This document shows, piece by piece, positions 20,797 to 63,344 of a DNA stretch of 64,000 nt. The notes beneath the pieces are model-generated. The model ran no database searches, was not told the origin of the DNA, and worked only from the letters and a program-made list of their open reading frames with translations. The stretch comes from Eledone cirrhosa (lineage: Eukaryota): assembly GCA_964016885.1 (NCBI GenBank), contig OZ024745.1, positions 61,380,001-61,444,000 on the forward strand, given 5' to 3'. Position 1 is the stretch's first letter; the number at the start of each line of letters is the position of its first letter. The translations under genes and the position numbers were made by a program.

Positions 20797-20840
20797 ACCG
20801 TCCTGACGAAGGCCAGTTAAGCCTGAAATGCATAGACGGT
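20797..20840 (+). ncRNA. Type I hammerhead ribozyme, complete core
   Basis: ACCGTC-CTGACGA-AGGC cagttaa GCCT-GAAA-TGCA-TA-GACGGT: 6 bp stem I, 4 bp stem II, palindromic ATGCAT stem III. Confidence 0.9.
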
Positions 20841-20955
20841 TGTCCCCCTTGCTTCTGCTGGACATCACCAGAGGGCGCTAGCCCCCCCCCCCCCCCCAGG
20901 TGTTTGCATAGCTACGTCTTCCTAAAACCGTATTTCCTTGGCGATACGAAATATT

Positions 20956-23120: not shown

Positions 23121-23164
<44 letters not shown>

Positions 23165-23166
<2 letters not shown>

Positions 23167-23363
23167 CGAAGGAGTTGTGGTAAGGAACCAGATGGACCAT
23201 AACGCACTAGAGTACTCAATACTTAGGGTAGTAGAGTGGGTAATAGGAGAAAGTATGACCCCGACGGCAGAGCTCAACCCGTTTCAACGGCTATTTCTAG
23301 ACTATTTAGTCCAGAAATAGCCGTGGAAACGACTTGAGCTCTGCCGTCGGGGTCATACTTTCT

Positions 23364-23368
<5 letters not shown>
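23165..23368 (-). mobile_element. (TA)n-flanked fold-back insert carrying the 3' half of an HHR (same family as 63107-63314)
   Basis: IR arms 23243-23304 / 23307-23368; GAAA-stem III-GTC-GGGGTC. Confidence 0.82.
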
Positions 23369-23490: not shown

Positions 23491-23556
23491 TATTTTATCT
23501 GATGAAAGCGCACCATAATTTGCCTTGGTGGCCCTTGAAATATGTATAATAAAATA
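23491..23556 (+). ncRNA. Type I hammerhead ribozyme in ~160 bp TA-flanked insert
   Basis: TATTTTAT-CTGATGA-AAG..CACCA..TGGTG..CTT-GAAA-TATGTA-TA-ATAAAATA; 8 bp stem I. Confidence 0.85.
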
Positions 23557-25557: not shown

Positions 25558-26160
25558 AAACAAACCGAACATTATAATAAATGTTCGGTAAACCCATACG
25601 TACATATATAAATGTGTGCATGTATGTATGTATATACATGCTACTGTACGTCTGAATACATATATGTATCTACGTATACATACTTATATTTAAGTATCAG
25701 CCGTACGAAGAGTGAGAAATGAAATTTCATTTTTTCCATTTATCGTTTTCGCTACGCCCGGCCGACTAACTCACTCGATATGCAAATTAGGCTGCTCAGC
25801 CGTTAATATGCATAAGGAAAGTATATACTTTCAAACGTTAAATCGATTGACAGGAAGGTATACGGTGCTGATGACAGCTAAGAACCTAGAAACTAGTTCA
25901 TCGTTCCTTTGTCAGTGTTGAACAAAAGAGCAACGATGGTTGCCGAACACTGTACGGCTTAATTCGGGCTGTTTGTTTACAAACAAACCGAACATTATGA
26001 TACATGTTCGGTAAACCCATACGTACATATATATATGTGTGCATGTATGTATGTATATACATACTACTGTACGTCTGTATACATATATGTATGTACGTAT
26101 ACATACTTGTATTTAAGTATCAGCCGTACTAAGAGTGAGAAATGAAATTTCATTTTTTCC

Positions 26161-30096: not shown

Positions 30097-31480
30097 CACA
30101 GTTCAAGAGTAACCAATCTTAAAGAGAGAGATGGAGATAGGAGAGGAGAGATTGGTGAATTAGTTAGAAGCCAAAGCGTAAAGGCATGTGCTCAATGTGC
30201 AATAGAAAGCAGCTAGGTGGGTTGGTTCATGCAGAAGTTAGGCGCGCAGAGCTGGAAATATTCATTAGTTAAGCAAAACAAGACCACAAATTTCACAAGG
30301 AAGACATTATTAAAAGATTGTCAACATATTTTAGTTTGATGTAAGGAATGTAGAGAATAATAATAATATTAATAATAATAATTGTTTCTACTTTAGGCAC
30401 AAGGCCAGCAATTACCCAGTACATTACTGGTACTTTATTTTATCGACCCCGCAAGGATGAAAGGCAAAGTTAACCTCGGCGGGATTTGAACTCAGACTGT
30501 AAAGGGACGTAACTATCCTAGAAAGCATGGCGTCCAACCCTCTACCGATACTGCCAATATTACTAATATGCCAATATTACTAATAATAATGTCCGTTTAC
30601 AATTGTTTCGCTACTCCATATAATATTTCTGGATCAGATGACTATATATCATTATTGATCTGGTTGAGTTGAAAATAATTAACATATTTAAAAACAGAGC
30701 GGCTCATCGGAACTTCAAAGGAATATAAATTAAAATAAGGAGAGAATGTTACATAATGTAATGTTCCATATATTGGTATTTCACTATGGTGTCCTGGTTG
30801 TGTCAATTGTCAGCCATAATCAAGCAGTATTCATCTGTCGAGGCTGCATTGTGTGAGATCTGCCTATGGGTAACAAGATGGCCGCCAAAGGACATATTTA
30901 GCTTACTAATTAGAGGGTGGTTTCAGGGGAAGTAACTCCCCGAGAGATTAGAAATTGTGGGTAGTTTATAGTTAAGTGCTAATTAAAAAATGTTTTAATT
31001 GAGAGACAATGTAGGGGAGGTAACTTATAATTATCTAAGTTAGTTATAGCTATTTAACTTATTAGCTACAAGTAAAAATGGGGCTAGACGACTATGTTGG
31101 GTCAAATATTCTATTGGCGAAGGAATTAGCCCTTCAATATTGACAGCTAATAGTTACCTCCGTTCTATCGTTAATCGGTAGAGGTCGTGATAGAGTTATG
31201 TAATATGCTTCGGTAATACAGAGATCACAAGATTTTCTTCGTCCATTGAACGGTTGGGCCCTAGCTACGATATCCCATTTTAGTGAGTGTTCAATGTTGC
31301 TTAATTTAAGGTTTTTAATGAGCCTATCTAGAGATGTCGACAATTGTAAACGGAAATTATTATTATTAATATTATTATTATTATTCTCTACATTCCTTAC
31401 ATCAAACTAAAATATGTTGACAATCTTTTAATAATGTCTTCCTTGTGAAATTGGTGGTTTTGTTTTGCTTAACTAATGAG
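30097..31480 (-). mobile_element. Penelope-like element fragment with inverted terminal copy and long-stem-II HHR
   Basis: ORF 31134-31343 LKWDIVARAQPF..CDLCITE..INDRTEVTISC resembles a PLE endonuclease C-terminus; 31340-31480 is an inverted copy of ~30262-30606 lacking the SINE; HHR-like 30596-30713(-) with CCGATGA core. Confidence 0.75.
30380..30560 (-). mobile_element. SINE (18565 family) nested in the PLE
   Basis: Reverse complement of 18565-18765; absent from the inverted arm. Confidence 0.88.
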
Positions 31481-31494
31481 TATATATATATATA

Positions 31495-31743
31495 TCAGAA
31501 TGGATGCAGTAAAAACCAATTAAACTATTACTCACCAGAGTACTCGATACTTGGGTTAGTAGATTGGGTAATATGAAGGATTCGGGACCCCGACGACTGA
31601 GCTTCTGCCGTTTCAACAGCTAGACCCGAACTGAATCGCCGGTGTTCTGGCGGCGAAAATAGCAGGCGTCAATGGGGATTCGGGGACAAAGACCAAGCTG
31701 TTGAAACGGCAGGAGCTAAGCCGTCGGGGTCCAGAATCCTTCA
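31495..31743 (-). mobile_element. Fold-back insert with HHR 3' half and branched stem II
   Basis: IR arms 31574-31621 / 31696-31743; related to 23165-23368 and 62567-62690. Confidence 0.8.
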
Positions 31744-34910: not shown

Positions 34911-35715
34911 ATACTTGGGGAGGGTCATATTTGTGTAATATTGCCAGAATTAATAACAGAACACATTCACTGTTTGGTTGGTTTTCGCTTTTCGCTTCTA
35001 TGTCTTTTATATCGGTAATCTAATATACTCGGTCCTCAATGTTGCCATTGACTGACCGACGGTCAAAAATAATACGGATACAATATAGACACAAACACAT
35101 ATATATAGTTTGTCATAAATCTTTCGTTGCACATCTGCAACATCGTCAGTGGTGCTATTGTTTCTTCCTGTTGAATTGTATGGCTACGCCACTTTTATTC
35201 AGTCTGTCTATATATTTATTTATTTATTTGCTTGTTTGTTTATTTTATTTTGTCTTCTTTGCGCATGCGTTTGCGTGTGTGTATAGTGTTTTGTTTGATG
35301 TGTGATGTGTGTTCGTGATTGGGTGACTAATGTGTGTTTATGTGTTTGTTGTTATTGTGCTTGTGTATGTATTTATTTATTTATTTTATTTTATTTTATT
35401 TACTTATTTATACTTCTCTTAGGTCATTGTTGTTTGTTTGGGTGTTGTTGTTATTCCATTCATTCTTTCTGTTTAGTCTTGGTCTTCTAAATTCTATTTC
35501 ACTGGCCTCTCTGATTTGCCCAGCTGCTGGGTCATTTCTATGTTTAGATATTATTCTAATTTCTATGTTGTCTATGTTACCGTCATGTTGTTGTCTGGCA
35601 TGTTCGTATAGTACTGACCCGTTTTTTCGTCCTTTTAGTTCCCCCCAGTGTTGGTCTATCCTTTCACCTATGCTACGAGCTGTCTCACCTATGTATGTTG
35701 TTGTCATGTTTCTGC
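34905..35715 (-). mobile_element. Penelope-like element 3' fragment (GIY-YIG ORF 35408-35707, 3'UTR, HHR 35112-35153)
   Basis: YIGETARSIGERIDQH..SVLYEH..IREASEI..LNRKNEW; CTGACGA-T-GTTGCA gatg TGCAAC-GAAA-GATT-TA-TGAC; shares gaccctcccaa(a)gtataacaata with ~25281-25303. Confidence 0.88.
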
Positions 35716-35724
35716 TATATATAT

Positions 35725-36170
35725 AATTGAAAAAGTGGAGAATAACATGGTCAACAATACAAAAAAAGGAGATTTATTTACAGTCTAACAATTGTTTCAC
35801 TGATAGAGTTGTCTAAAAATCCCTAAACACTGAAAGTAGTGCCACTCAATTTAAAATACATGTTATCTCCATCATATTCTCAGTCTCTGAGGATATGAAG
35901 GAGATAACTTGTATGAGTGGCACTACTTTCAGTGTTTAGCGATATTTAGACAACTCTATCAGTGAAACAATTTTTAGACTGTAAATAAATCTCCTTTTTT
36001 GTACTGTTGACCATGTTATTGTCCACTTTTTCAATTTTATTACTCCAAGATAAACTTACATAGGAATACAGTGAAATCATAAACTCGTCATCCACGTAAA
36101 CCTCTTGTTGAGTCATACAACACCGTACGCTAAAACTATTCACAACCTCTAACGATATTTTGTTATCCTC
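35725..36170 (+). mobile_element. Fold-back insert (arms ~35725-35883 / 35887-36037) with HHR at 35881-35981
   Basis: CAGTCT-CTGAGGA-...CTCTATCAGT-GAAA-CAATT(G/T)-TT-AGACTG. Confidence 0.8.
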
Positions 36171-39748
<3,578 letters not shown>

Positions 39749-42904: not shown

Positions 42905-45900
42905 TTTTTTTTTTTTTTTTCCAAATATAAAAGAGATAATTGGCAATTTAGGTTCTGGAACAAAAAAGATCATTGGCAATAAGGGCAGGGGCCCCAGGTT
43001 ATCACAGCCTGGGCCCGCTCGTCATCGTGCCATTGTAATAGAGCCAAACAAGGCATTTAGTCTTGGCTGCTGGAACGTACGGACGCTGCTTGACAGGGAT
43101 TCCTTGGGGCGTCCTGAACGAAGGACCGCTCTTGTTGCAAAGGAGCTTCGACGTTACGATCTTGACATCGTGGCTTTATCTGAGACGAGGCTAGCTGGAG
43201 ATGGCCATCTTACGGAATTTTGTGGAGAATATACATTCTTCTGGAAAGGAAGAGATGAAGGAACCAGAAGAGAGGCTGGGGTAGGATTTGCTGTTAAGAC
43301 TGTGCTTTTGAACAAATTAGAAGAATTCCCAGTAGGGATTAGTGAGCGTCTTATGTCCATGAGAGTTCCGCTGGACAGGGGAAGATATGCTACCCTGGTG
43401 AGTGTGTATGCTCCAACTATGAGTTCTGTCGATGAGAAAAAGATGTCTTTTGACCATGCCTTGAAAGGTGTTTTAAGAAATATCCCTCAGGCAGACAAAG
43501 TCATCGTGCTTGGTGACTTTAATGCTAGAGTGGGTAGAGATTTTAACACATGGAATGTAATCGGAAGGCATGGGGTGGGAAAGTGTAACAGCAATGGTAT
43601 GCTCCTGCTGCAGATGTGTGAGGAGCTGGATCTGTGTTACCAACACCATGTTCCAACAAAAGAACAAATTCAAGACCACATGGATGCATCCTGCATCTAA
43701 GGAATGGCATCTTTTGGACTACGTCCTAGTCAGGATGCGTGACAGACAGGATGTGCAGTGTGTTCGTGTTCTTCGTGGAGCTGAGTGCTGGACGGACCAC
43801 CGCCTGGTACGCGCAAAAGTGAAACTAATCACTAAACGTAAAATCCGGGCTCCTGGTGTTGCCCTGCCCAAAAGATTGAATGCTGCTCGTCTTAAGGATA
43901 AAAATGTGAAGAGGACATTGGAAGAAGAGATGCAGGCTGCAGATCTTGGTGAGGATTGGCCGACCCTTAAAAAGTCGGTTTATGATGTAGGCAGGCGTGT
44001 TCTGGGATTGGCGCAGAGGAAACATCAGGACTGGTTTGATGAGAATGATGTACATATAGAAGACTTGTTGGCTGATAAGAGGCGTACTCTGTCACGCTAC
44101 TTGACGGCAAAACCACAGGAGAGGAATACGTTGCATGAGGAACTCAGGGATGTAAAATCACGTGTTAGGCGGAGTCTTTCTCAGATGAAGGATCAGTGGT
44201 GGAGTGAGAAGGCTGGTGAGATACAAACTGCGTCTGATTCCAATAACACAAAGCTGTTGCACAGTCTCTTGCGTGAGGTTTATGGACCGTCTTCTTCTCT
44301 GGTGACACCGCTTCGCAGCAAGGATGGCAAAGAACTTCTTCGTGACTCACAAGGAATTCTACGAAGGTGGCGAGAGCACTTTGATGATCTTTTGAATCAG
44401 CCGTCTGTCGTCAGTGAAGATTTCCTCAATCTCATTCCAGAAAGTCCTGTGAAAGTAGCTCTCGCAGAACCTCCGACGCTTGTGGAGGTTGCAGTGGCTA
44501 TTTCGAAGCTGAACAGTGGAAGATCTCCAGGTATGGATGGCATACATGCTGAGCTCCTACAATATGGTGGTGAGAGACTCCTGCAACATCTTCACTCTTT
44601 GTTTGGCAGGATATGGGCTAATGAATCCGTACCTGAGGACTGGAGAGATGCAGTAATGGTGGTCTTGTACAAGGGAAAGGGTAACAGGAACGATTGTGCG
44701 AACTACAGAGGTATATCATTGCTTTCTGTCGTAGGGAAAGTTTTATGTAGGGTGCTTCTGGACCGTCTGCTGACACACATTGCAGATTGTGTTCTTCCTG
44801 AAAGTCAATCTGGTTTTCGTGCTGGACGCGGCACTACTGATATGATCTTCTCAGCTAGACAGCTCCAGGAGAAGTGCATGGAACAAGGCTTGGATCTGTA
44901 TCAGGTTTTTGTCGATCTGACAAAAGCTTTCGATACTGTTAACAGAGATGCATTATGGAAGGTTCTCCAGAAACTTGGTTGCCCTGATAAGTTCCTTGCT
45001 TTAGTTAGGTCTTTCCATGACGACATGAAGGCTTGGGTTAATGTCGGGGGTAACATGTCGGAGCCTATCTCAGTAAAAAATGGAGTGAAGCAGGGGGATA
45101 TTCCAGCACCGACCCTGTTTGCCATATACTTTGCAATGGTTTTCTGTATTGCATTCAGGAATTGCGAGCATGGTGTTTACATCCGATATCGAACCTCAGG
45201 CAGCATATTTAACATCAGGCGCTTTGCTGCGAAGACAAAAGTGTTTACATCAATCATAAGAGACCTCTTGTATGCAGATGATTGCGATCTTGTAACGCAC
45301 ACAGAGAGTGATATGCAGCACATTTTGAATGCATTTTCTGACGCTTGCACTGCCCTAGGTCTGACTGTCAGTCTCAAGAAAACCGTCGTCATGTACCAAC
45401 CTGCCCCAGGTAAGCAGTACACTGAACCAAACATCTATGTGTATGGCAAACGACTTGGAGTGGTTGATCAGTTTGTCTACGTGGGAAGCACTGTCAATCG
45501 ATACAGCAACCTTGACAGTGAAATCTCACTTAGGATTAGGAAAGCAAGTGATGCTTTCGGAAAGCTAGAAAGGCGACTCTGGGATCGGCGAGACATATGC
45601 AGGAGGACAAAGGTAAAGGTGTACAGGGCATGTGTGCTCTCTTGTCTTCTTTATGCCTGCGAGACCTGGGTCACATATCGACACCACCTTAAGCAATTGG
45701 AGCGTTTCCATCAGATGTGTCTCAGACGGATCCATGGCGTTCACTGGAGGAACCACATCAGTGATGTCGAGATTTTGGAAAGCTCTATGTGTGACAGTAT
45801 AGAAGCTCTTGTGCTTAAGCAACGACTCCGTTGGAGTGGTCACCTTGCCAGGATGAAGGATTCTAGAATACCAAAACAACTCTTTTATGGAGAGTTGGTT

Positions 45901-46552
45901 AAAGGAAAACGACCGCCACATAAACCAAAAAAGAGGTATAAGGATTCCTTGAAAGCCTCTCTGAAAGACGCTAACATCTCTGCTGATACATGGGAGAATA
46001 TTGCTGCTGATCGTAATAAATGGAGAAAGACTGTATATGAGGGAAAAGTTGCCTTTGAGGCATCTCGAATCGCATACGAGAAAGTAAAGCGGGATGTGAG
46101 GAAGGCATTGTTGTTGCACTTCCAGACGGCGAGGGTCCTCCTATGGTGCTGACATACGGCGTATGTGCGAGACTCTGCCTAACCAAAGCTGGACTCGAAA
46201 GTCATCTTCGCAGTCATAAAGTAAGACTAGTGGTTGACTACCAGGCTGCTGTTGGAGATGCTACTCATCATGCTTGCCAAACATGTGGTAGAGAATGTAA
46301 ATCAGCAGGAGGGCTCAAGCGACATGCAAAAGTACGCGAACTCCAACCACAGTCGACTATTCCCAGTGAATGTTTTGGTTGCCGACTCTGTGCAAGACAT
46401 TTTAGATCATTGGCTGGGCTAAAAAGCCACATTCGATCGCATCGCTGTTAGTTGCTATCGTGTGTGTGTGTATATATGCTTGTTTGTGCGTGTGTGTGTA
46501 TATATATATATGTATATGTATATTATTATTGTTGTTGTCGTTATTATTATTG

Positions 46553-46831: not shown

Positions 46832-49800
46832 TCAGATATTCAGGACGTATCGGAGGGTTCTTGCTGTTCCAAGCAAGCATGCCTTTTGAAGCGTTCCAAA
46901 AAGCGTGAAGGGGCCGATTTTCTTTAACCATCCCTGGAAACTTTTGGAGATAGTCCCCAGTGCGCCTATGACAATCGGGATCACTTTGACTTCATGGCAG
47001 TTCCAAATCCTTTTCACCTCCCACTTTAGGTCCTGGTATCGGTTAATTTTCTCCCTCTCCTTCTCTTGCACTCTCGTGTCGAACGGGCAGGCCACATCCA
47101 CAATCAGGCACGATCTTTTTTCTTTGTCCACAACCACCAGGTCAGGTCTATTGTGTTCCAGTTTTTTGTCCGTCTGTATCCTAAAATCCCACAGCACCTT
47201 CACCTGATTGTTCTCCATCACCGCCTCTGGCCTATGCTCATACCATTTCTCAGAATGTGGTAAATTGTTTACTTTGCACAGGTGCCAGTGGATCACCCTG
47301 CCCATCACATCGTGTCTCCAGCCCTTATAGTGGGTCTGGGCTAGGTGTTTACACTCGGACACAATGTGAGCCACAGTCTCCTCTCTCTCTCCACAGATCC
47401 TGCACAGTGGGCTAGCCTCCTCCTTGTAGATATGGTGCTTCAACCACTTCGTTTTGAGGGCCTGCTCCTGCGCAGCCATTAGCATTCCTTCTGTAGCCTT
47501 TTTGAGGTCTCCTCTTCTCAACCAGTTCCATGTCTGTGGATCTCTAAATTCAGTTTTCTCAAAGAAGGTACTATGAAGGGATTTTCCCTTAAGGCTGCTC
47601 TTCCTCCTTGATGTTATTTCCTCCTTGGACATCCCCTGGCCTACTGTCCCCTCCTTCAGTACAGTTCTGAGCATTGGCTCCTTACTATAGGTCACGTATT
47701 TGTATAGGTTGTTTTTCTCCATCTGAACACAGTCCTCTATGCTGATAAGACCTCTTCCACCCTCAGATCTCCTTAGGTAGAGTCTATCGACATCACTCCT
47801 CTTGTGGAACATGTTGTAGGTAGTCAATAGCTTCCTAGTCTTCCTATCCATTTCTTTTTGTTCAGCAACATTCCATCTCAGAATTCCCGCACTGTACCTA
47901 ATAATAGACACAGCTCGGGAATTTACTGCGCTTATGGCATTTCTGCTGTTCAGATGTGACTTCAATACGCTCCTTACTCTCCGAATGTATTCAGTTCTTA
48001 ACAATTCCTTCATTTTTTTGTTCTTTATGCCATCAGCCTCCAGAACGCCCAAATACTTGTATCCTTCCTCAGAGTCAATTTCCTTTATCATCTCACCTGT
48101 TGGTATCTGGATCCCGTTACTTCTGCTCAACCTACCCCTCTTCATCACAATGACTCCACATTTACCAATACCAAACTGCATACATATATCACTGCTGAAA
48201 ATACGGACAGTGTCAACAAGCACATCCAACTCCTTCTCACTTTTCCCGAAGAGCTTAAGATCGTCCATGAAGAGGAGGTGATTGATGGTAAGCTCTCCCC
48301 TTCCCAACTTGTATCCTGCTCTCACTTTTCGCAGCATAATGGTCAAGGGCATCAGGGCAAGGACAAACAACAGAGGGGACAGGCTATCTCCCTGGAAGAT
48401 ACCTCTCTTGATCTTCACGCTTCCCAAGGATACTCCAGTTGATGTCAACTCTGTCTCCCAGGACCCCATACTCCTGCCTAGCAACTGTCTGATGTTATCT
48501 GCCACCCTGAAGATCTCCAGGCTTTTGGTGATCCAGGAATGAGGCACCATGTCAAATGCCTTTCTGTAGTCTATCCATCCCATGGCAAGATCAGTGTGTC
48601 TCCTCCTGCAATTCCCCATTACCATCTTATCAACAAGTAACTGGTCCTTTGTACCACGTGACTTCTTTCGGCATCCTTTCTGTTCGTCCGGTAACAAGTT
48701 GTTTGTGTGGAGGTGATGGTAGATTTCCTCAGACACAATGCTCGTCAACAGTTTCCACATTACGGACAGACATGTGATAGGTCTATAGTTGGTAACATCA
48801 TTACCCTTGATTCGGTCTTTCATTATCAGAACTGTGGTACCTTTTGTCAACCACTCTGGCACCTCACCCGACACCAAGCAGTCATTGAACATGGCCGTCA
48901 GCTTCGGGTGGAGGGATGTTAAATGTTTAATCCAATACCCCTGCACACCATCTGGGCCTGGTGATTTCCAGTTGGTTAGTTTTTTGGCCTGCCCCTTAAG
49001 AGTTTCAACTGTGATACTCAAATCAGTTTGTTGTTGTGCCTGCTCACCGATCTCCCTCTGTACTGTCTCAATCCACCCTGCCTGGACATTGTGTCTAACA
49101 TCCTGCTCCCATATTCCTCTCCAGAATGTTTTAGTTTGTTCCGCCCCAGGGATCAAGTCGTTGCCTCTTTCTTTCCCCTCAAGCTGTCCAAACAGCATCT
49201 TCTGGTTGTTGTCGAACATGCGGTTCTGTTTATACTGACTGACTCTGTTCTCGTATCGCCTGATTTTTGCACTCTTTGCTACAATGCGTTGCTTCAATTC
49301 CTCTATGATAATATTTAGCTTTTTACTCCTAGTTTTGTATTTTATTTCCAGTCTATTTTTAGTGCCTATGTTTTTTAGTGTCCCATTCAGTAGTGACTCA
49401 AGCTTTCCTATGTCATTTCTCATTTCCCCGATTTGCCCACTCAGTCGCTTCTTCCACCACGGCTCTGCTCTTTCTTGTCTGTTGTTTCCTCTCGCTTTTA
49501 TACCAAGTAGTTTCCTCACCGTATTTGCTGTTGCTTTGAGGATATTGTTGCACTGGTGAAGGCTCCTCGCCTCAAGGTATGGGATGACTTTGTTTACCTT
49601 AGCTGTTGTTTCTTTTAACTTTTTCCTGTCTACAAATCTTAGGTTCATAGGTCTCCCACTATCATTGTTCAATTCATCTACCACTAAATTTAGGATGTCA
49701 ACCGAATCTTGTCCTAGCCCGTCAGCATTCATCTCCTCAGTGGCCGTATCTCTGTTCCAGGTATTATTTATCTCAGTATTCAGATCATTGTCTGCTTCGG

Positions 49801-50092
49801 GTGGTTCCTCCGTTCTCAGGACCTCTTCACCTTCATTTCCCACTGGCTCGCTTGTCTGGCATACTACACCCGCCATCTCCAAGCCATTCTCTCTGCTCAG
49901 TTCCTCCAGTTCCAGCTCGCTTATCCACCCATTAGTTCTTATTACCCGAGCCTGCCCGGCCAATTTTTGTTCATCTAATTTAAATAAACCAATCTCGTTC
50001 CAGATGTTATGCATCCGTCTCCTGTAGCCCCTCTCCTTGGGGTCACTTTTCAGGTAGCATTGCATAACAGTTCTATTCAATTCTTTCGTCAA
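46832..50092 (-). CDS. Dong/R4-clade RT-REL polyprotein (element ~46757-50360), family C
   Basis: 1086 aa open; WIDYRKAFD, GIFQGDSLSP, FMDDLKL, CRIC..HIVSEC, RHD, RPD..DVACP; 3' end runs into (TAA)n; in-frame upstream ATG 50224 is separated by one stop. Confidence 0.95.
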   Translation of the reverse strand: MTKELNRTVMQCYLKSDPKERGYRRRMHNIWNEIGLFKLDEQKLAGQARVIRTNGWISELELEELSRENGLEMAGVVCQTSEPVGNEGEEVLRTEEPPEADNDLNTEINNTWNRDTATEEMNADGLGQDSVDILNLVVDELNNDSGRPMNLRFVDRKKLKETTAKVNKVIPYLEARSLHQCNNILKATANTVRKLLGIKARGNNRQERAEPWWKKRLSGQIGEMRNDIGKLESLLNGTLKNIGTKNRLEIKYKTRSKKLNIIIEELKQRIVAKSAKIRRYENRVSQYKQNRMFDNNQKMLFGQLEGKERGNDLIPGAEQTKTFWRGIWEQDVRHNVQAGWIETVQREIGEQAQQQTDLSITVETLKGQAKKLTNWKSPGPDGVQGYWIKHLTSLHPKLTAMFNDCLVSGEVPEWLTKGTTVLIMKDRIKGNDVTNYRPITCLSVMWKLLTSIVSEEIYHHLHTNNLLPDEQKGCRKKSRGTKDQLLVDKMVMGNCRRRHTDLAMGWIDYRKAFDMVPHSWITKSLEIFRVADNIRQLLGRSMGSWETELTSTGVSLGSVKIKRGIFQGDSLSPLLFVLALMPLTIMLRKVRAGYKLGRGELTINHLLFMDDLKLFGKSEKELDVLVDTVRIFSSDICMQFGIGKCGVIVMKRGRLSRSNGIQIPTGEMIKEIDSEEGYKYLGVLEADGIKNKKMKELLRTEYIRRVRSVLKSHLNSRNAISAVNSRAVSIIRYSAGILRWNVAEQKEMDRKTRKLLTTYNMFHKRSDVDRLYLRRSEGGRGLISIEDCVQMEKNNLYKYVTYSKEPMLRTVLKEGTVGQGMSKEEITSRRKSSLKGKSLHSTFFEKTEFRDPQTWNWLRRGDLKKATEGMLMAAQEQALKTKWLKHHIYKEEASPLCRICGEREETVAHIVSECKHLAQTHYKGWRHDVMGRVIHWHLCKVNNLPHSEKWYEHRPEAVMENNQVKVLWDFRIQTDKKLEHNRPDLVVVDKEKRSCLIVDVACPFDTRVQEKEREKINRYQDLKWEVKRIWNCHEVKVIPIVIGALGTISKSFQGWLKKIGPFTLFGTLQKACLLGTARTLRYVLNI

Positions 50093-50459
50093 GTTGGTTT
50101 AGGCCCCTTTCCTTCTTCTTCTTCCTCCAACATCAGCAGTATTTGGTTGACAGTCAGGTTCCTGCTGCTGAGCCAGGGGGCACCTGTTGGGTGAGAGTCT
50201 GTCACATGACGTTCTAGTCTCCATTTCACCGTTATTCGAACTGTTTATGTTCGATATTTAAACACTCTTATCGAGGATTGGCGAATGTATGGTTACATAG
50301 CCATCTGTGGATCCGCCATCCAACTTGGCCCTTGTGTGGCATTATCACCACGCTGTATACGAACACACATAAACAAACAAACACACAGGCAGAAAGGGCC
50401 CCAAAAATGAATAAGCATAAGTTTCATTGTAATGTAGTGTTCGAATGTCTGACTTAGTT

Positions 50460-51303: not shown

Positions 51304-51510
51304 TTTATTATTATTATTATTATTATTATTGAATGCCATGGTTGACGGAGGCTCGGCTCTGTAAGGTATAGTAATTTTTAACCGTTAAAACAATTGTAAA
51401 TTGTTTAAAACTTGAACCAAATTGTTGATAAAGACACCCTCCTCCTCGTGAGAGGGGTCTTTCTGTCCGTTATTTGGCCCTTCGGGGTTAAATAACCAGT
51501 TATTGGGGTT

Positions 51511-53073
51511 TTGTACCCAAAATTTCATTTTAAACAAAAAACAACATGGCTACGAAAAAGAAATTTCATACGTCACTCCCACTCATTCCGTCTTCTTCTT
51601 CCTCAATCATCACTACAGCAGAGAGAAGATTGTCTCTCCCTCCCTTCTTTAAATGTGTCTCTCTCCCTCCCTTCTCTTTCGCAAGTGACGAAAGAAAAGA
51701 AAAGTCTCGTGCAAAGCGTGCAAGGTTTCTTCACGACGACGACGACAGCGACGAAACAGGTGTGCGGGAAATACGAAAACCCAGTTCATTCGTCTGACGT
51801 CAGGAATAATAGCAGTAGCAGCCATAATAACAACAGCAACAGTGACAATGAAAACAACAGTAGCAGCCGCAACAGCATCACCAGCAGCATAAACAACAAC
51901 AGCATTAGCAACAGCAACACCAACAACAACCACAGCAACAGCGGCGGAGGCAGTAGTCGTAGTACCTGCAGCAACAACAAAAGTACCAGCAGCTCTGACG
52001 ACAACAACAACAGCAGAGAAAAACCAATCTCATTTGCAGGTATTGCGAAAAACTTGGAAACAATCCTCATAACAAATGAGGAATTAGAGGAAGCGAAGAA
52101 GATGGTGACAAAGAACGGACACCGAGCAATCTGCAAGGCAGCGGAAAAATTTTTCGAAACCCAAGAGCACTGTACGGTCACGTACCGTACAGTAAGTACA
52201 AAATCCCGTAGGGTGGAAAGAGCCACAGAGGCCCAAATACAAAAAGCCTTGGAGTCTGTGTGGCAGCGGAAAACGCACATCACCCGAGGCAAAAAATATG
52301 CCACCGTAGACGTACTTTTTGCCACACCCCAGGAGGCAAAGGCCCAATCAGTAGTGACCCTAAGGAGCGAGGAAATGGTGTTGGTGCCCTCCTACTGCGG
52401 GCAAAAAATTGTGAGGGTCAAACTGACCCACGTCCCCCCCGGAATGACCCCTTCTTGGCTGGCCGCGTCTGTCCTCGTCGGAATCGAGGACAAAACAACT
52501 GTACTGCAAGTACAGAAAAAAGTAAGAGAAGATTGGGTCGGCTCCTCCATTGAGATGCTAATCCAAACCAACCAGGAGTGCATCGAAGCTATCCCGGATG
52601 TGATAGACTTCGATAACGGCACTCAACTGCCCATAAGTGTTGAGGGAAAACGCCCGAAATGCTTTCGCTGTGGATCGAAGACTCACCTCAGGGCCTTCTG
52701 CAACGAGAAGACCCTGAGAAAGGAGAAAACCCCCCTCCTTCCGAATCCGGCTCCACGGCTACCAGCAACAGGACAAGCGGCAACCAGGAACGATAGGTCC
52801 GTGGCACCCATACCCACTCCACGGAAATCAAAAACAGCAGCAGCAGTGGAAATATTAACAACAACAACAACAGCAATACCAAATGCAGCTGCAACAGAGA
52901 CTCCAGTGCAAACATCACCAACAACAACAAGTGAAAGAGTGGAGCTGGTACCCCTCCCCGACCTCACAGAATCAGACATGGAGTGTGAGGTGGGAGAGGG
53001 ATGGCAAAAGGTCGCAAGAAGACACAAACGCAGAAGCAGCGCATCGTCGCCTTTGAAAGGAGGAAAGAAATGA
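51511..53073 (+). CDS. Tx1-clade ORF1 (CCHC zinc knuckle); true start may be ATG 51547 with a frameshift
   Basis: CFRCGSKTHLRAFC; lies upstream of APE-RT ORF2. Confidence 0.85.
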   Translation: MYPKFHFKQKTTWLRKRNFIRHSHSFRLLLPQSSLQQREDCLSLPSLNVSLSLPSLSQVTKEKKSLVQSVQGFFTTTTTATKQVCGKYENPVHSSDVRNNSSSSHNNNSNSDNENNSSSRNSITSSINNNSISNSNTNNNHSNSGGGSSRSTCSNNKSTSSSDDNNNSREKPISFAGIAKNLETILITNEELEEAKKMVTKNGHRAICKAAEKFFETQEHCTVTYRTVSTKSRRVERATEAQIQKALESVWQRKTHITRGKKYATVDVLFATPQEAKAQSVVTLRSEEMVLVPSYCGQKIVRVKLTHVPPGMTPSWLAASVLVGIEDKTTVLQVQKKVREDWVGSSIEMLIQTNQECIEAIPDVIDFDNGTQLPISVEGKRPKCFRCGSKTHLRAFCNEKTLRKEKTPLLPNPAPRLPATGQAATRNDRSVAPIPTPRKSKTAAAVEILTTTTTAIPNAAATETPVQTSPTTTSERVELVPLPDLTESDMECEVGEGWQKVARRHKRRSSASSPLKGGKK

Positions 53074-53669
53074 GAAAAGGGTAAAGTCTACTGCAAAGAG
53101 ACCCACAGCAGCAACACCACCAACACCATCACCACCCACACCAGCACCACCATCACCACCACCGGCGACAACCCCACCGCCAACAATACCTTCAACACCA
53201 CCACCACAAGCACCAACATCGCAAACACAACAACAAAACACACACACCCAGCAACAACGACAAGAAAATAGCAGAACCACACCCCACCCCCAGAAAAACA
53301 AATGCACGGCAATAAACACACACAACAAGAAACTAATGACTTACATAATTGAACACACAGACATTTCACAACAGGACTACATAATACCAGCACCAATCAA
53401 AACGCCAACTAACATAAGACTGCTAAAAATAGCACAGAAACAATACACAAACATTAAAACGAAATTCCCCAACGCAGTTGGTGATTTCAGGGACCTAGGA
53501 GGAACCATCAATCGAAGAGTATATTCTTAGAAGAGCCGACGACCAGCCGAAGGGACGATTCAATGGTCCCTTCACCAGACGATCAAGTGAAAAGGGATGT
53601 AAAAACCATCCCTCCTCTACCAAAAGTACGGTAAGTGGTCTTTCCCATCTTTTCCACTCTATTTTAAAC

Positions 53670-56600
53670 ATGACCTCACTAAGAATAGGCAGCATAAATG
53701 CGCGTGGCTTGGGGTCGTCATGGAAGCAGGGTCACCTGCTCAACGACCTCAGGTCACTAAACATAGATGTAGTGGCCATCAGCGAGACCAGAATCTCCGA
53801 AGCACGGGCCTTCGCACCGATCTTCGGCGGCTACGATGTATACGCATCTCCCAGCCGTCCTGGATCGGGTGGAGGAGTTGCTGTGCTTTTTCGGAGAGGT
53901 TTGGATCTCGCCATACGGGCCATCTTCCTGGACCCAGAGGGTAAGCTGGTGGTGCTGGACGTGACCAGCGGAGACGGGCAAGCTTTCAGGCTAGTGGCCG
54001 TCTATGCCCCGACAGGAGCAGGGCGGCCTGATTTCTTCCGGCGTCTGGAGACCTTTCTTGGAACGTCCCGCTCTTTAGTGTTAGTGGGCGACTGGAACGG
54101 GATCTTAGATGCACGCTGGGACTGTGTGGGATTAGCGGATAGGGGTGGAGGGTGCAAGAGCCTCCCCAACCTGCTCAGGCGTTTTGAACTGTCTGACAGG
54201 TACCGATTGGATTTCCCGAATGTGCCAATGTGGACTTGGACAAACCGCATAGGGTCATCCAGATCATATCTAGATAGAGTATTTTGTAGGGAAATAGATA
54301 GGTCTAGCATAGGCTGTCCACAATTCAAGATAGTCAGCTACACGGACCACAAATTCGTGACCTGTGTGCTTGACTTAGATAGGCTTCATAGACGAGGACC
54401 CGGCTACTGGAAGCTAAACGCGTCCTTACCAGCGCGCAAGGCCTACAGAGACCGGATTAGCGAACTAGTTAAGCGGGCGTTGACGGGGGCCATCGTCAAC
54501 AACAAGTGGTGGTTTGCTCTGAAAAGAGCGATTAGAATAGAATCGATTAGGTTTAGTAAGGCTTTAGCAATAGAGAAAAATAGAGCAGAGGGAGAACTAG
54601 TTAGAAAATTAGACGAGGCGCTTAGCAAAGGCATTGCGACCGACGTGCTTGCGGCGAAATTGGCCCTTGACCAATTCTTCAATGCAAAGCACGAAGGCTG
54701 CGTTGTCAGAGCTAGGGTGCGTGCTCTCAGACACGAGGGGACGAAAGCCGTTCAATGGGCCCGAGTGGCGGAGGCGCGTCGTGGCAACAAAGCCACGATC
54801 CGGTCTTTGGTGGACCACGACGGGCGCATGCTACTCGACCCCGGGCAAATGTGTGAAGCTTTTCAGCGACACTTCGCTCAGCTGTTCGGGGGCAGCGGGG
54901 GGCCGGGTAGAGGGATGGACTTTAGTGTCTACCTCGACGGACTGCCGCGGCTCTCGGCCACTGAGGCGAAGTGTTGCGAAAAGCCGATAACAGCCGCTGA
55001 AGTACGGGAGGCAATGACTGGCTGCACAAGGGGTAAATCGCCTGGTTTGGATGGTCTGCCCTATGAACTTTACGTACAGATGCCAGACTTGTTCGGAGGC
55101 CTCTTGGCGGACGTCTACTGCAACTGGCAACAGAACGGGAGAATTCCCAGTTCTGTGAGCCGAGGAGCGGTGGCACTGCTGAGAAAGGATCCGAACAAGG
55201 GGGATAACATAGACAATTTCCGGCCCATAACTCTGCTAAACACAGAGTTTAAGATTTTGGCCAAGGTGCTAGCAAAGAGGTTGGCGCTTGTCGTTGGTGG
55301 TCTGGTGGGAGAGGCGCAGACATGCGCCATTCCCGACAGATCCATCCACGACAACCTCCACCTCATGCGATACATCGTAGAGAGGGTAGCTAGGGAACCT
55401 GGCACGGGTGGGTCCTTGATCAATTTAGATCAGTCGAAAGCTTTCGATAGGGTCGACCATCGTTACCTAGCGGCAGTCCTGAGGGCGGCTGGCTTTGGGC
55501 CCGTCTTCAGAGGCTGGATCGCTGCCATGCACAGCGACATCTGCTCTGTAGTGAGAGTGAACGGTCACCTGTCGGAACCGTTCAACATCATGCGCTCGGT
55601 CCGCCAAGGATGTCCCCTCTCGTCCCTCTTGTACGTATTGACTCTCGAGCCATTACTGCACAAACTGGAGACGTTGAGGGGAGTCCCGCGCGAACTAGGA
55701 TGCGGAAGATCCGTGTCAGCATATGCGGACGATGTCACCGTAGTGGTGTCGAACGCCAAACACATCGAGGCGATCGGCACTACACTAAGAGAATACGAAG
55801 CGGTGACAGGAGCAATGATCAACCAGGAAAAGTCAGTGGGCCTGCAGCTCGGCACCTGGAGAGGCAGGTCCATGCCGTCCAACAGCGTCGTCGGGCGCTG
55901 GACGGACGGACCGGTTAAATTGCTAGGGGTCTGGTTCGGTCCGGACCTCCAGACGGACAAAAACTGGGACGAGGTGACGAGCAGGGTGGCTTCTCTCACC
56001 CAGAAATGGGCGGAGAGGAAGCTATCCCTGAAAGGTCGAGCGGAGGTGGCTAACGCGTACATCGCGTCTGTCATCTGCTACCGCCTAACCGTCGTACCTT
56101 GTCCTAAGCCTCGCCTGACTGCGCTGGAGCGTTTGCTCTTTCGCTTTTTGTGGAAGGGACGTGCTCCGATGGTCAGGCGGTCCATCTGTTGTCAACACCC
56201 GCTACGTGGAGGGCTGGGCATGCCGTGGCTGATGATGCGCAGGCACGCGCTCAGGCTACGACATCTCCACCTCTTCCTCGACGGTGATCAGGTGTGGTCG
56301 CCGTTTGCTAGACGCGTTTTTCCCCAGCTCGTTTCCTTGACGGAGCTGCAGTCCTGGGTCAAGCGAAGACCGAGAGGGAGCGCCTGGAGACTGGAATGTC
56401 TTCAGGCGCTCACAGCCCTCGACCAATCGGGCAATGTGATCGGTGGAAACTCCACCTCGGCGTTCTATAGAGGATTAGTGGAGGGGAAGAGCGACGACGT
56501 ACTTGGGGAAACTCTAGGCGTCGACGAAAATCAACTAGCCAATCTCTTCGGAAGAACTTTCGGGCCAGGGCCTATGGACAACTTCCAGAAATCTCTGGCC

Positions 56601-57089
56601 TGGCAGTGCTACCGACGAGCCTTGCCAGTTCGGGATAAACTCTACAGGCATGGAGGTGCCGTCAGCCGGGCATGTCCGAGATGCGCGCAGGGCGACGAAA
56701 CCGTCCTGCACGCACTCGTCCAGTGTCCGAAAATTGCTGACTTGTGGGTTTATGTCGAACACCTGCTGTCGCGTTTAGGACGGATCCGGCTATCATCTGA
56801 GTCCATCGTGAGGATTGCCCCGCCCTCCTCCTTTAGCCGGGAAGGGCAGGCAGTTTTTATCTGCCTGGTGGCCATGGCGAAAGAGATAGTATGGTGGACA
56901 CGTTTGAAAGGGCTGAAGACGAGCACTTACCTCTTCGGTGATGCTCTGATTGACTTTTTCAAATTTCATTTGAAAAGGAAAATCAGAGTAGAGAGGGAAG
57001 TGCTCTCTTCCCAGCATTTTGTTGAAAGATGGGTGAGAGAAGCAAGAATGGCCCGAGTGAATGGGCCTACTCTGAGCATATATCTGTAA
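53670..57089 (+). CDS. Tx1-clade ORF2 (APE endonuclease, RT, C-terminal zinc finger), intact; element 51331-57340
   Basis: SINARGL, VYAP, GDWN, YLDR, TDH, YWKLN, SPGLDGLP, DQSKAFDRVDH, VRQGCPLS, AYADD, CPRC..HALVQC; (ATT)n on both flanks. Confidence 0.96.
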   Translation: MTSLRIGSINARGLGSSWKQGHLLNDLRSLNIDVVAISETRISEARAFAPIFGGYDVYASPSRPGSGGGVAVLFRRGLDLAIRAIFLDPEGKLVVLDVTSGDGQAFRLVAVYAPTGAGRPDFFRRLETFLGTSRSLVLVGDWNGILDARWDCVGLADRGGGCKSLPNLLRRFELSDRYRLDFPNVPMWTWTNRIGSSRSYLDRVFCREIDRSSIGCPQFKIVSYTDHKFVTCVLDLDRLHRRGPGYWKLNASLPARKAYRDRISELVKRALTGAIVNNKWWFALKRAIRIESIRFSKALAIEKNRAEGELVRKLDEALSKGIATDVLAAKLALDQFFNAKHEGCVVRARVRALRHEGTKAVQWARVAEARRGNKATIRSLVDHDGRMLLDPGQMCEAFQRHFAQLFGGSGGPGRGMDFSVYLDGLPRLSATEAKCCEKPITAAEVREAMTGCTRGKSPGLDGLPYELYVQMPDLFGGLLADVYCNWQQNGRIPSSVSRGAVALLRKDPNKGDNIDNFRPITLLNTEFKILAKVLAKRLALVVGGLVGEAQTCAIPDRSIHDNLHLMRYIVERVAREPGTGGSLINLDQSKAFDRVDHRYLAAVLRAAGFGPVFRGWIAAMHSDICSVVRVNGHLSEPFNIMRSVRQGCPLSSLLYVLTLEPLLHKLETLRGVPRELGCGRSVSAYADDVTVVVSNAKHIEAIGTTLREYEAVTGAMINQEKSVGLQLGTWRGRSMPSNSVVGRWTDGPVKLLGVWFGPDLQTDKNWDEVTSRVASLTQKWAERKLSLKGRAEVANAYIASVICYRLTVVPCPKPRLTALERLLFRFLWKGRAPMVRRSICCQHPLRGGLGMPWLMMRRHALRLRHLHLFLDGDQVWSPFARRVFPQLVSLTELQSWVKRRPRGSAWRLECLQALTALDQSGNVIGGNSTSAFYRGLVEGKSDDVLGETLGVDENQLANLFGRTFGPGPMDNFQKSLAWQCYRRALPVRDKLYRHGGAVSRACPRCAQGDETVLHALVQCPKIADLWVYVEHLLSRLGRIRLSSESIVRIAPPSSFSREGQAVFICLVAMAKEIVWWTRLKGLKTSTYLFGDALIDFFKFHLKRKIRVEREVLSSQHFVERWVREARMARVNGPTLSIYL

Positions 57090-62437: not shown

Positions 62438-62565
62438 TAAGGGGGTGCTGAAAATTCCTGGCTTTGGGTAAAAGAAAATACAGGAAAACCAGTTGATTAT
62501 AATCTTATTCAACATATTCCCATTTAAGATTCTCACACTTATTGCAGCGGTCCTTCAGATCTTCT
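62438..62565. mobile_element. Mariner-like terminal fragment
   Basis: ta-agggggtgctgaaaattcctggctt resembles a mariner TIR. Confidence 0.5.
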
Positions 62566-62704
62566 AAGCTCTTGCTGTTTCAACAGCTAGTTCCAGACTC
62601 TAGTTTTTAATATAGTCATACGCTACTAACCTAAGTATCGAGTACCCTGTTGAATAATAGTCTAACTAGGTTAAAACTGGTTTCAATCCATATATATATA
62701 TATA

Positions 62705-62852: not shown

Positions 62853-63106
62853 ACACACACACATATATATATATATATATTTGTAAATCGAACTTTAGCT
62901 GCAGTACAGCTATTACTATCCGATTTGTTTGAAGCAATCACGAAGCACTCAATGGATCGAAAGTTAAAAACAAACATTAAGTCCAGAGTTAAACACCGTA
63001 GTTATAAAATGTGACACTTAGAGAACCGACCGAAGGCACAAACTATACATACAACAAAATAACGATAGATATAAAAAATGGTTTTTCATATATATATATA
63101 TATATA

Positions 63107-63312
63107 TAGGAACGAGTAGGACCCCGACGGCTGAGCTCAAGCCGTTTCGACGGCTAATTCTGGACTAAAATTAGCCGTCCAGAATTAGCCGTCGAAACGG
63201 CTTGAGCTCAGCCGTCGGGGTCCTACTCGTTCCTATTACCCACTCTACTACCCTAAGTATTGAGTACTTTGGTGCGTTATGGTCCACCTGGTTCCTTACC
63301 ACATTTCCTCCG

Positions 63313-63314
<2 letters not shown>
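63107..63314 (+). mobile_element. (TA)n-flanked fold-back insert with HHR 3' half
   Basis: Perfect arms 63107-63165 / 63177-63235; TAGCCGTC-GAAA-CGGCT tgagctc AGCCG-TC-GGGGTCC. Confidence 0.85.

Positions 63315-63344
<30 letters not shown>

Follow-up and report, generated by a model that had tools for sequence, protein, structure and literature searches.

The DNA analysed here, referred to as the window, is a stretch of 64,000 nt from Eledone cirrhosa, taken from a 3.0-Gb assembly rich in (TA)n. Three palindromic insertions that match one another were found in it (31495-31743, 23243-23368 and 63107-63235). The first, termed the focal copy, is a member of an older subfamily, A, and the other two are members of subfamily B. 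The order stem II 3′ strand-GAAA-stem III-GTC-GGGGTC was present in both arms of all three copies, and an earlier sequence-only reading of this DNA was right about these palindromes, their coordinates and the motif order on both arms. The features are collected in the table; unit coordinates are used throughout, with the G of GAAA as position 151. Exact matches to the tails numbered 223 for subfamily A and 21,988 for subfamily B, with none for the reversed controls, and were thus far above chance. A further, decayed piece of subfamily A, the fourth in the window, lies beside (TA)n at 62564-62665 (−) and comprises the stem II 3′ strand, GAAA and parts of the tail. C-terminal pieces of other Penelope-like endonuclease ORFs were also present at 31137-31340 (−) and 35408-35773 (−), the former lying 150 bp from the focal copy and being 31% identical to the subfamily B protein. 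The window further contains long open frames at 51496-57089 (+, 1196 aa), 46832-50098 (−, 1088 aa) and 43561-46152 (+, 863 aa), which we take to be non-LTR retroelements with L1/Tx1-, R4/Dong- and RTE-like motifs. Compact CUGANGA...GAAA motifs at 23499-23548 (+), 39489-39527 (−), 25868-25902 (+) and 20803-20841 (+) are probably hammerheads of unrelated Penelope-like families.

Table. Palindromic insertions of the window and their parts (positions of the window).
Feature	Positions	Strand	Remark
Focal copy, sense arm: upstream sequence, decayed type I hammerhead and tail	31496..31697	-	5′ limit judged by eye against locus L008
Focal copy, inverted arm, 48 nt: stem II 3′ strand to the fixed site bordering the tail	31696..31743	+	
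Focal copy, position of the decayed hammerhead core (C3 to A9), three changes relative to CTGANGA	31669..31675	-	
Focal copy, stem II 5′ strand, one mismatch relative to the family	31660..31665	-	
Focal copy, side hairpin TCGCCG/CGGCGA within loop II; part shared by related copies	31636..31656	-	
Focal copy, Initiator-like hexamer; A at 31632, at which the majority of family arms end, is the predicted transcription start	31629..31634	-	role as start putative
Focal copy, stem II 3′ strand, GAAA (31614-31611), stem III, predicted cleavage after 31592, stem I 3′ strand	31587..31622	-	
Focal copy, tail, bounded by both fixed arm ends (predicted RT start sites), then (TA)n	31496..31571	-	
First subfamily B copy (23164-23368), sense arm; begins one base before the Initiator-like A (23303)	23164..23304	-	
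First subfamily B copy, inverted arm; inner end at unit 129	23304..23368	+	
Second subfamily B copy (63106-63316), inverted arm; inner end at unit 130	63106..63169	-	
Second subfamily B copy, 7-nt junction insert repeating nearby element sequence	63170..63176	+	read directly
Second subfamily B copy, sense arm and tail; begins at unit 134	63177..63316	+	

The centre of the focal copy (31696-31697), known from this assembly alone as public contigs do not cover it, lies ~20 nt upstream of the core, and the sense arm traverses the entire ribozyme. The core position reads a decayed CCATTGA (31675-31669) that aligns to the CTGATGA/TTGATAA of uninverted copies. The claim that a mirror-image arm takes the place of the core half held for the two subfamily B copies and failed for the focal one, whose sense arm retains the decayed core; the focal copy departs from the very pattern that it was picked to illustrate. 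A natural branched helix had also been described at its centre. The TCGCCG/CGGCGA part corresponds to a loop II side hairpin that is partly present in relatives, and the CCCGAAT/GTTCGGG part is not conserved, its 3′ half needing a G that is present in only one of 21 aligned rows.

From their sequence, the palindromes are best read as the ends of a Penelope-like lineage from the Hydra clade. In subfamily B, 3,528-bp tandems occur with intact 717-aa ORFs, in which YRDD and AYIGLT motifs of an RT and, at the C-terminus, of a GIY-YIG-type endonuclease were recognised. The ORF contains all five motifs (RWK-like, DKT, a CxCX5C linker, CxxC and CxH) given as defining traits of the Hydra clade in PMC8557442, and a Neptune-like reading of the ORF was dropped, the motifs pointing to Hydra. 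The best homolog of the ORF carries PF01541, and a Pfam search with three fragments and with the full 717-aa ORF returned no families. The target is (TA)n, with ATAT immediately before 51 of 51 arms ending at unit 193, and the layout is that of EN+ PLEs, with tandem pLTRs and with inverted arms ending at 193 or 276. ORF motifs, tandems and inverted arms together bear out the assignment to Penelope-like elements already made in the sequence-only reading. The tie of the focal subfamily to an ORF is one of DNA homology only (76-81% over ~100 nt). Among 20 loci examined, no ORF linked to the oldest subfamily was found, and in one of the 20 (L317) an A-type ribozyme lies 1.3 kb downstream of an ORF piece 69-74% identical. 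Tandem units were identical within a locus in 33 of 56 pairs (7 of the 56 cross a junction and are not comparable) and between loci in 21 of 210, and this greater likeness within loci fits a circle and a homogeneous donor equally. Adjacent palindromic inserts were seen in one (TA)n run at L277, L081/L082, L065 and L088, which suggests repeated insertion at one target.

The uninverted copies carry what appears, from the conserved elements, to be a real type I hammerhead. Their core, of the C3-G8 or U3-A8 form, lies ~60 nt ahead of GAAA and closes a stem II that is long and branched, and U3-A8 cores are known to occur naturally (PMC3088659; PMC4209133). The expectation that uninverted members would carry ACCCC and a hammerhead core before stem II was confirmed, two core patterns matching 4 and 50 of 307 loci, respectively; of the four, three are near-identical to one another and have the core in their inverted arm. 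In an alignment of 21 read-through copies, hand-picked across subfamilies, stem I (ACCCC/GGGGT), the core, the long stem II with a ~37-nt loop, GAAA and the full stem III were all kept, and 89% of the cells were paired. Positions 3 and 8 pair as UA in 10 of these rows and as CG in 6, and position 7 varies. The support from covariation was thin (3 pairs with double changes, compared with 3.6 in shuffles) because the rows reflect few lineages. Single-strand folding was no better than in shuffles (z-scores of −0.43 to 0.59 in four folds), and no hammerhead was present among the 150 Rfam matches listed (out of 174) for the window, which is without an intact copy. Arms ending at unit 173-177, the predicted cleavage site, accounted for 10 of 37 in subfamily A (p = 0.002) and 3 of 34 in subfamily B; the pile-up in subfamily A is a weak hint of self-cleavage and may be a G-run artefact. 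Short inserts are without the core, as had been claimed. At L223:4011-4071, the 3′ strand of stem II is able, once the 5′ half is gone, to form pairs with the 5′ strand of stem III around GAAA, a hairpin in the cDNA fold, and this pairing would possibly represent an inactive fold at the predicted mRNA start.

The arm ends were mapped in first-listed places, which lie on few contigs and which, in old copies, may have undergone later deletions. For subfamily B, 87 of the first 100 listed places (out of 21,988) were used, and the 64 inverted calls given by BLAST were reduced to 61 after 3 spurious ones were removed; for subfamily A, 89 of 223 places (one duplicate removed) gave 74 inverted calls, reduced to 56 by removal of 18 (TA)n matches. 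The outer ends were found to be fixed at two sites 83 nt apart, namely unit 193 in 51/61 inverted arms and 276 in 76/87 copies of subfamily B, with 48/56 inverted arms of subfamily A ending at 186-196. The inner ends of subfamily B fell at 127-140 in 50/61 inverted and 43/61 sense arms, none lying below 127, and those of the inverted arms of subfamily A at 130-140 in 42/56 and at 132-134 in 29/56. The centres are therefore strongly non-uniform and within the stem II domain, as had been expected. Rather than on stem II, they cluster a few bases beside it, inside loop II. Public contigs of another study have loose ends at matching places (273, 193 and an inner edge at 129-130), and the pattern is therefore no assembly artefact.

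The two arms of a copy were compared in 30 copies (32 found, 2 dropped). They shared a haplotype in 28, the random mean being 9.6, and therefore probably derive from one RNA; among these 30 young copies, 16 had identical arm pairs. The inverted arm reached further 5′ than the sense arm in 21/61 copies of subfamily B and 32/56 of subfamily A, one insertion having an inverted arm of ~10 kb and a sense arm of 129 nt, and multi-kb arms from site 193 have partners of 129-183 nt. Thirty long insertions were found to reach the upstream ribozyme, and none of these ended at 127-140 (hand count), so that sequence or structure itself is no block at this place. The sequence-only reading had proposed a snap-back of nascent cDNA on the stem II hairpin and had expected a peak of centres at stem II. 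The position of the centres within the stem II domain agrees with such a pivot, as do a few copies that turn at stem II strands (e.g., L139 and L068). Nevertheless, inner ends on the stem II 3′ strand (143-150) amounted to only 5/61 inverted arms (and 5/61 sense arms) in subfamily B and 3/56 inverted arms in subfamily A, the native ~37-nt loop is not retained at palindrome centres, and the 5′ strand that the hairpin needs was never reached by most cDNAs. The excess length of many inverted arms, which could not outgrow their template in a snap-back, and the passage of long arms through the hairpin in 30/30 insertions also speak against a pivot on stem II, which is hardly credible.

The inner-end cluster has a sharp edge at an A, unit 133, within a hexamer that we take to resemble the Pol II Initiator consensus. 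The A-G-T at this edge was conserved in 20, 20 and 21 of the 21 aligned rows, respectively, the rest of the loop being variable. The base before this A was counted by hand in the first 100 rows of the matches. In subfamily B (5,482 matches) it was G in 47 rows, A in 9 and C in the other 44, the C being mostly a natural variant, and in subfamily A (240 matches) 39 G and 7 A were found, compared with 33 G and 28 A at a control A at 138, five bases downstream (1,500 matches). Relative to the control, the Fisher p values were 0.0007 (47:9) and 0.0009 (39:7), the rows taking in, for some loci, both strands. Of the 47 G counted in subfamily B, just 21-23 cannot derive from the partner arm, and the control site also shows some unexplained G. 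No clear G bias was seen by eye at position 129, and in unselected loci the base preceding arms at the inner site was G in 2, A in 2 and C in 10, too few to show a bias. Genome-wide, junctions with both arms at 133 were flanked by G at 163 loci and by A at 2, with spacers mostly of 0-2 nt; for many of the 163 G-G junctions, one untemplated base and a templated insert suffice, and ~10 of 50 listed need two such bases. An untemplated 5′ G has been taken as a cap signature in L1 (PMC9341517). The A at unit 133 is likely to be the transcription start of the element, with the status of a putative start site.

Two other origins of this edge were considered. An RNA end at 129-134 could arise, with priming from both target ends as described below, from a nuclease cut, an AG splice acceptor or a bound protein. 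The site does read as a pyrimidine-rich stretch followed by AG, the ends spread over 127-140, and no long copy begins there, but no constant exon or leader was found before the ends, the single extra G is position-biased, and a protein or structure block should have stopped the long arms too, so that such an end is improbable. The clustering might also have been produced after insertion, by centre deletion and arm conversion in longer palindromes. Palindromes are unstable, and ragged junctions are present in some old subfamily A copies; nonetheless, the young copies, with their identical arm pairs, show the same sharp edge, and deletion would neither add a G at one site nor spare multi-kb inverted repeats. 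Shrinkage of this kind is considered very improbable.

The account that we regard as rather probable is that two cDNAs are primed from both target ends, run off a probably capped RNA 5′ end in loop II and are then joined. A (TA)n target would be cut and both of its ends would each prime a cDNA on the same RNA, one at 276 and the other at 193, both at a TAT able to pair with (TA)n. Both cDNAs would run off the probably capped 5′ end at ~133 within the hammerhead loop II and, being of the same polarity, would be joined head to head by microhomology of 0-4 nt or by short templated inserts, giving a palindrome with a tail. Since none of the 30 long insertions ends at the predicted start, a second class of template must be assumed, and we infer an RNA without that 5′ end, read-through or circular, that would give longer arms and scattered ends. 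The focal sense arm and the multi-kb tandems would be products of such RNA. A more specific version, put forward tentatively and at somewhat less than even odds, follows from a start inside the element's own loop II. The capped mRNA would have only the 3′ half of the ribozyme and therefore could not cut its own 5′ end, and the whole ribozyme would form upon read-through into the next unit; capped mRNA primed twice would yield the 210-nt palindromes, and cleaved and circularised or read-through RNA the long tandem arms. If these proposals are right, thousands of 210-nt palindromes have come from capped mRNA primed twice near its start, and palindrome centres document, in the genome, Penelope start sites as well as twin priming.

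The same run-off could be followed by self-priming at the end of the RNA rather than on stem II, when one cDNA folds back via a micro-hairpin of 4-6 nt, in many cases with the extra base as primer, and extends along its own sequence as far as the TA that borders the tail. This fold-back also suits the commonest junctions, in which a native loop of 4-6 nt is kept with 1-4 nt of pairing. The arm haplotypes shared in 28/30 copies agree with it, and self-priming has been proposed before (PMC3846280). Fold-back of a single run-off cDNA cannot, however, produce inverted arms that exceed their sense arms in length, nor multi-kb arms from 193 with their short partners, nor bring both arms to the same end with 0-1 nt between them. 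It is therefore unlikely as the general route, although it may yield part of the short copies beside those made by two cDNAs.

Several of these features are shared with known Penelope-like elements. Hydra-1_Obim (Craig et al. 2021, PMC8557442) likewise has a single ORF with RT and C-terminal endonuclease and with RW[RK], DKT, CxCX5C, CxxC and CxH, and its octopus protein, as listed in the supplement, resembles the subfamily B ORF by eye. The (TA)n target and a sense-strand hammerhead near the 3′ end are likewise described for Hydra-clade PLEs in that paper. In contrast to elements of the Hydra-1_Obim type, the Eledone family has a 3.5-kb unit with tandem pLTRs, a loop II of ~37 nt rather than 8 nt, and U3-A8 cores in young copies. 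Two of its ribozyme motifs had no occurrences in the PMC8557442 supplement, which indicates a distinct family. A short motif of the tail (window 63236-63270) was found by eye in common with the 3′ end of the element, probably a coral Hydra one, whose entry directly precedes Hydra-1_Obim in that supplement; the motif is possibly a conserved protein-binding site.

Regarding the insertions, EN+ PLEs also present a head-to-head, tail-less inverted copy with junction overlaps (PMC3846280, PMC8557442), so that the overall shape is already published; the Eledone inserts differ in a tail of ~80 nt instead of 30-40 nt and in being mostly ~210 nt long with a fixed inner edge. The Eledone data speak for two sense-templated cDNAs rather than for self-priming on an antisense template, as put forward in 2013 (PMC3846280). 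In vitro, the Poseidon PAc Penelope protein acts on both strands of the target by cutting and extending them, and its RT has two internal starts that bound the tail and an AT-rich target (Frangieh et al. 2024, PMC11167929). These traits resemble those proposed for Eledone, whose two RT starts are predicted ones, although Poseidon is of a different clade, and the sections of that work drawn on here offer no explanation for inverted copies and inner ends. Hammerheads of PLEs were likewise described as type I, situated in the pLTR, with an extra base near 10.1 and a U3-A8 variant, and a circular template was proposed for these elements (Cervera and de la Peña 2014, PMC4209133). The Eledone ribozyme differs from them in its full stem III, its long branched loop II and the predicted start inside the ribozyme. 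The start of the D. virilis Penelope lies upstream of an intron that precedes the ribozyme (PMC2377424 with PMC4209133).

The inverted copy with tail, self-priming, two RT starts, an internal Penelope promoter and U3-A8 cores are already in print. A literature search, with subscription journals and supplementary figure images outside its reach, found no report of a start site within a Penelope hammerhead loop or of a cap-G at palindrome centres. The origin of the inverted and tandem insertions of PLEs and the purpose of their ribozymes are stated as open questions in PMC8557442 and PMC11167929, and the Eledone family, a young one with ~22,000 matches to its tail, ORFs that are intact and arm ends exact to the base, makes both questions directly testable.
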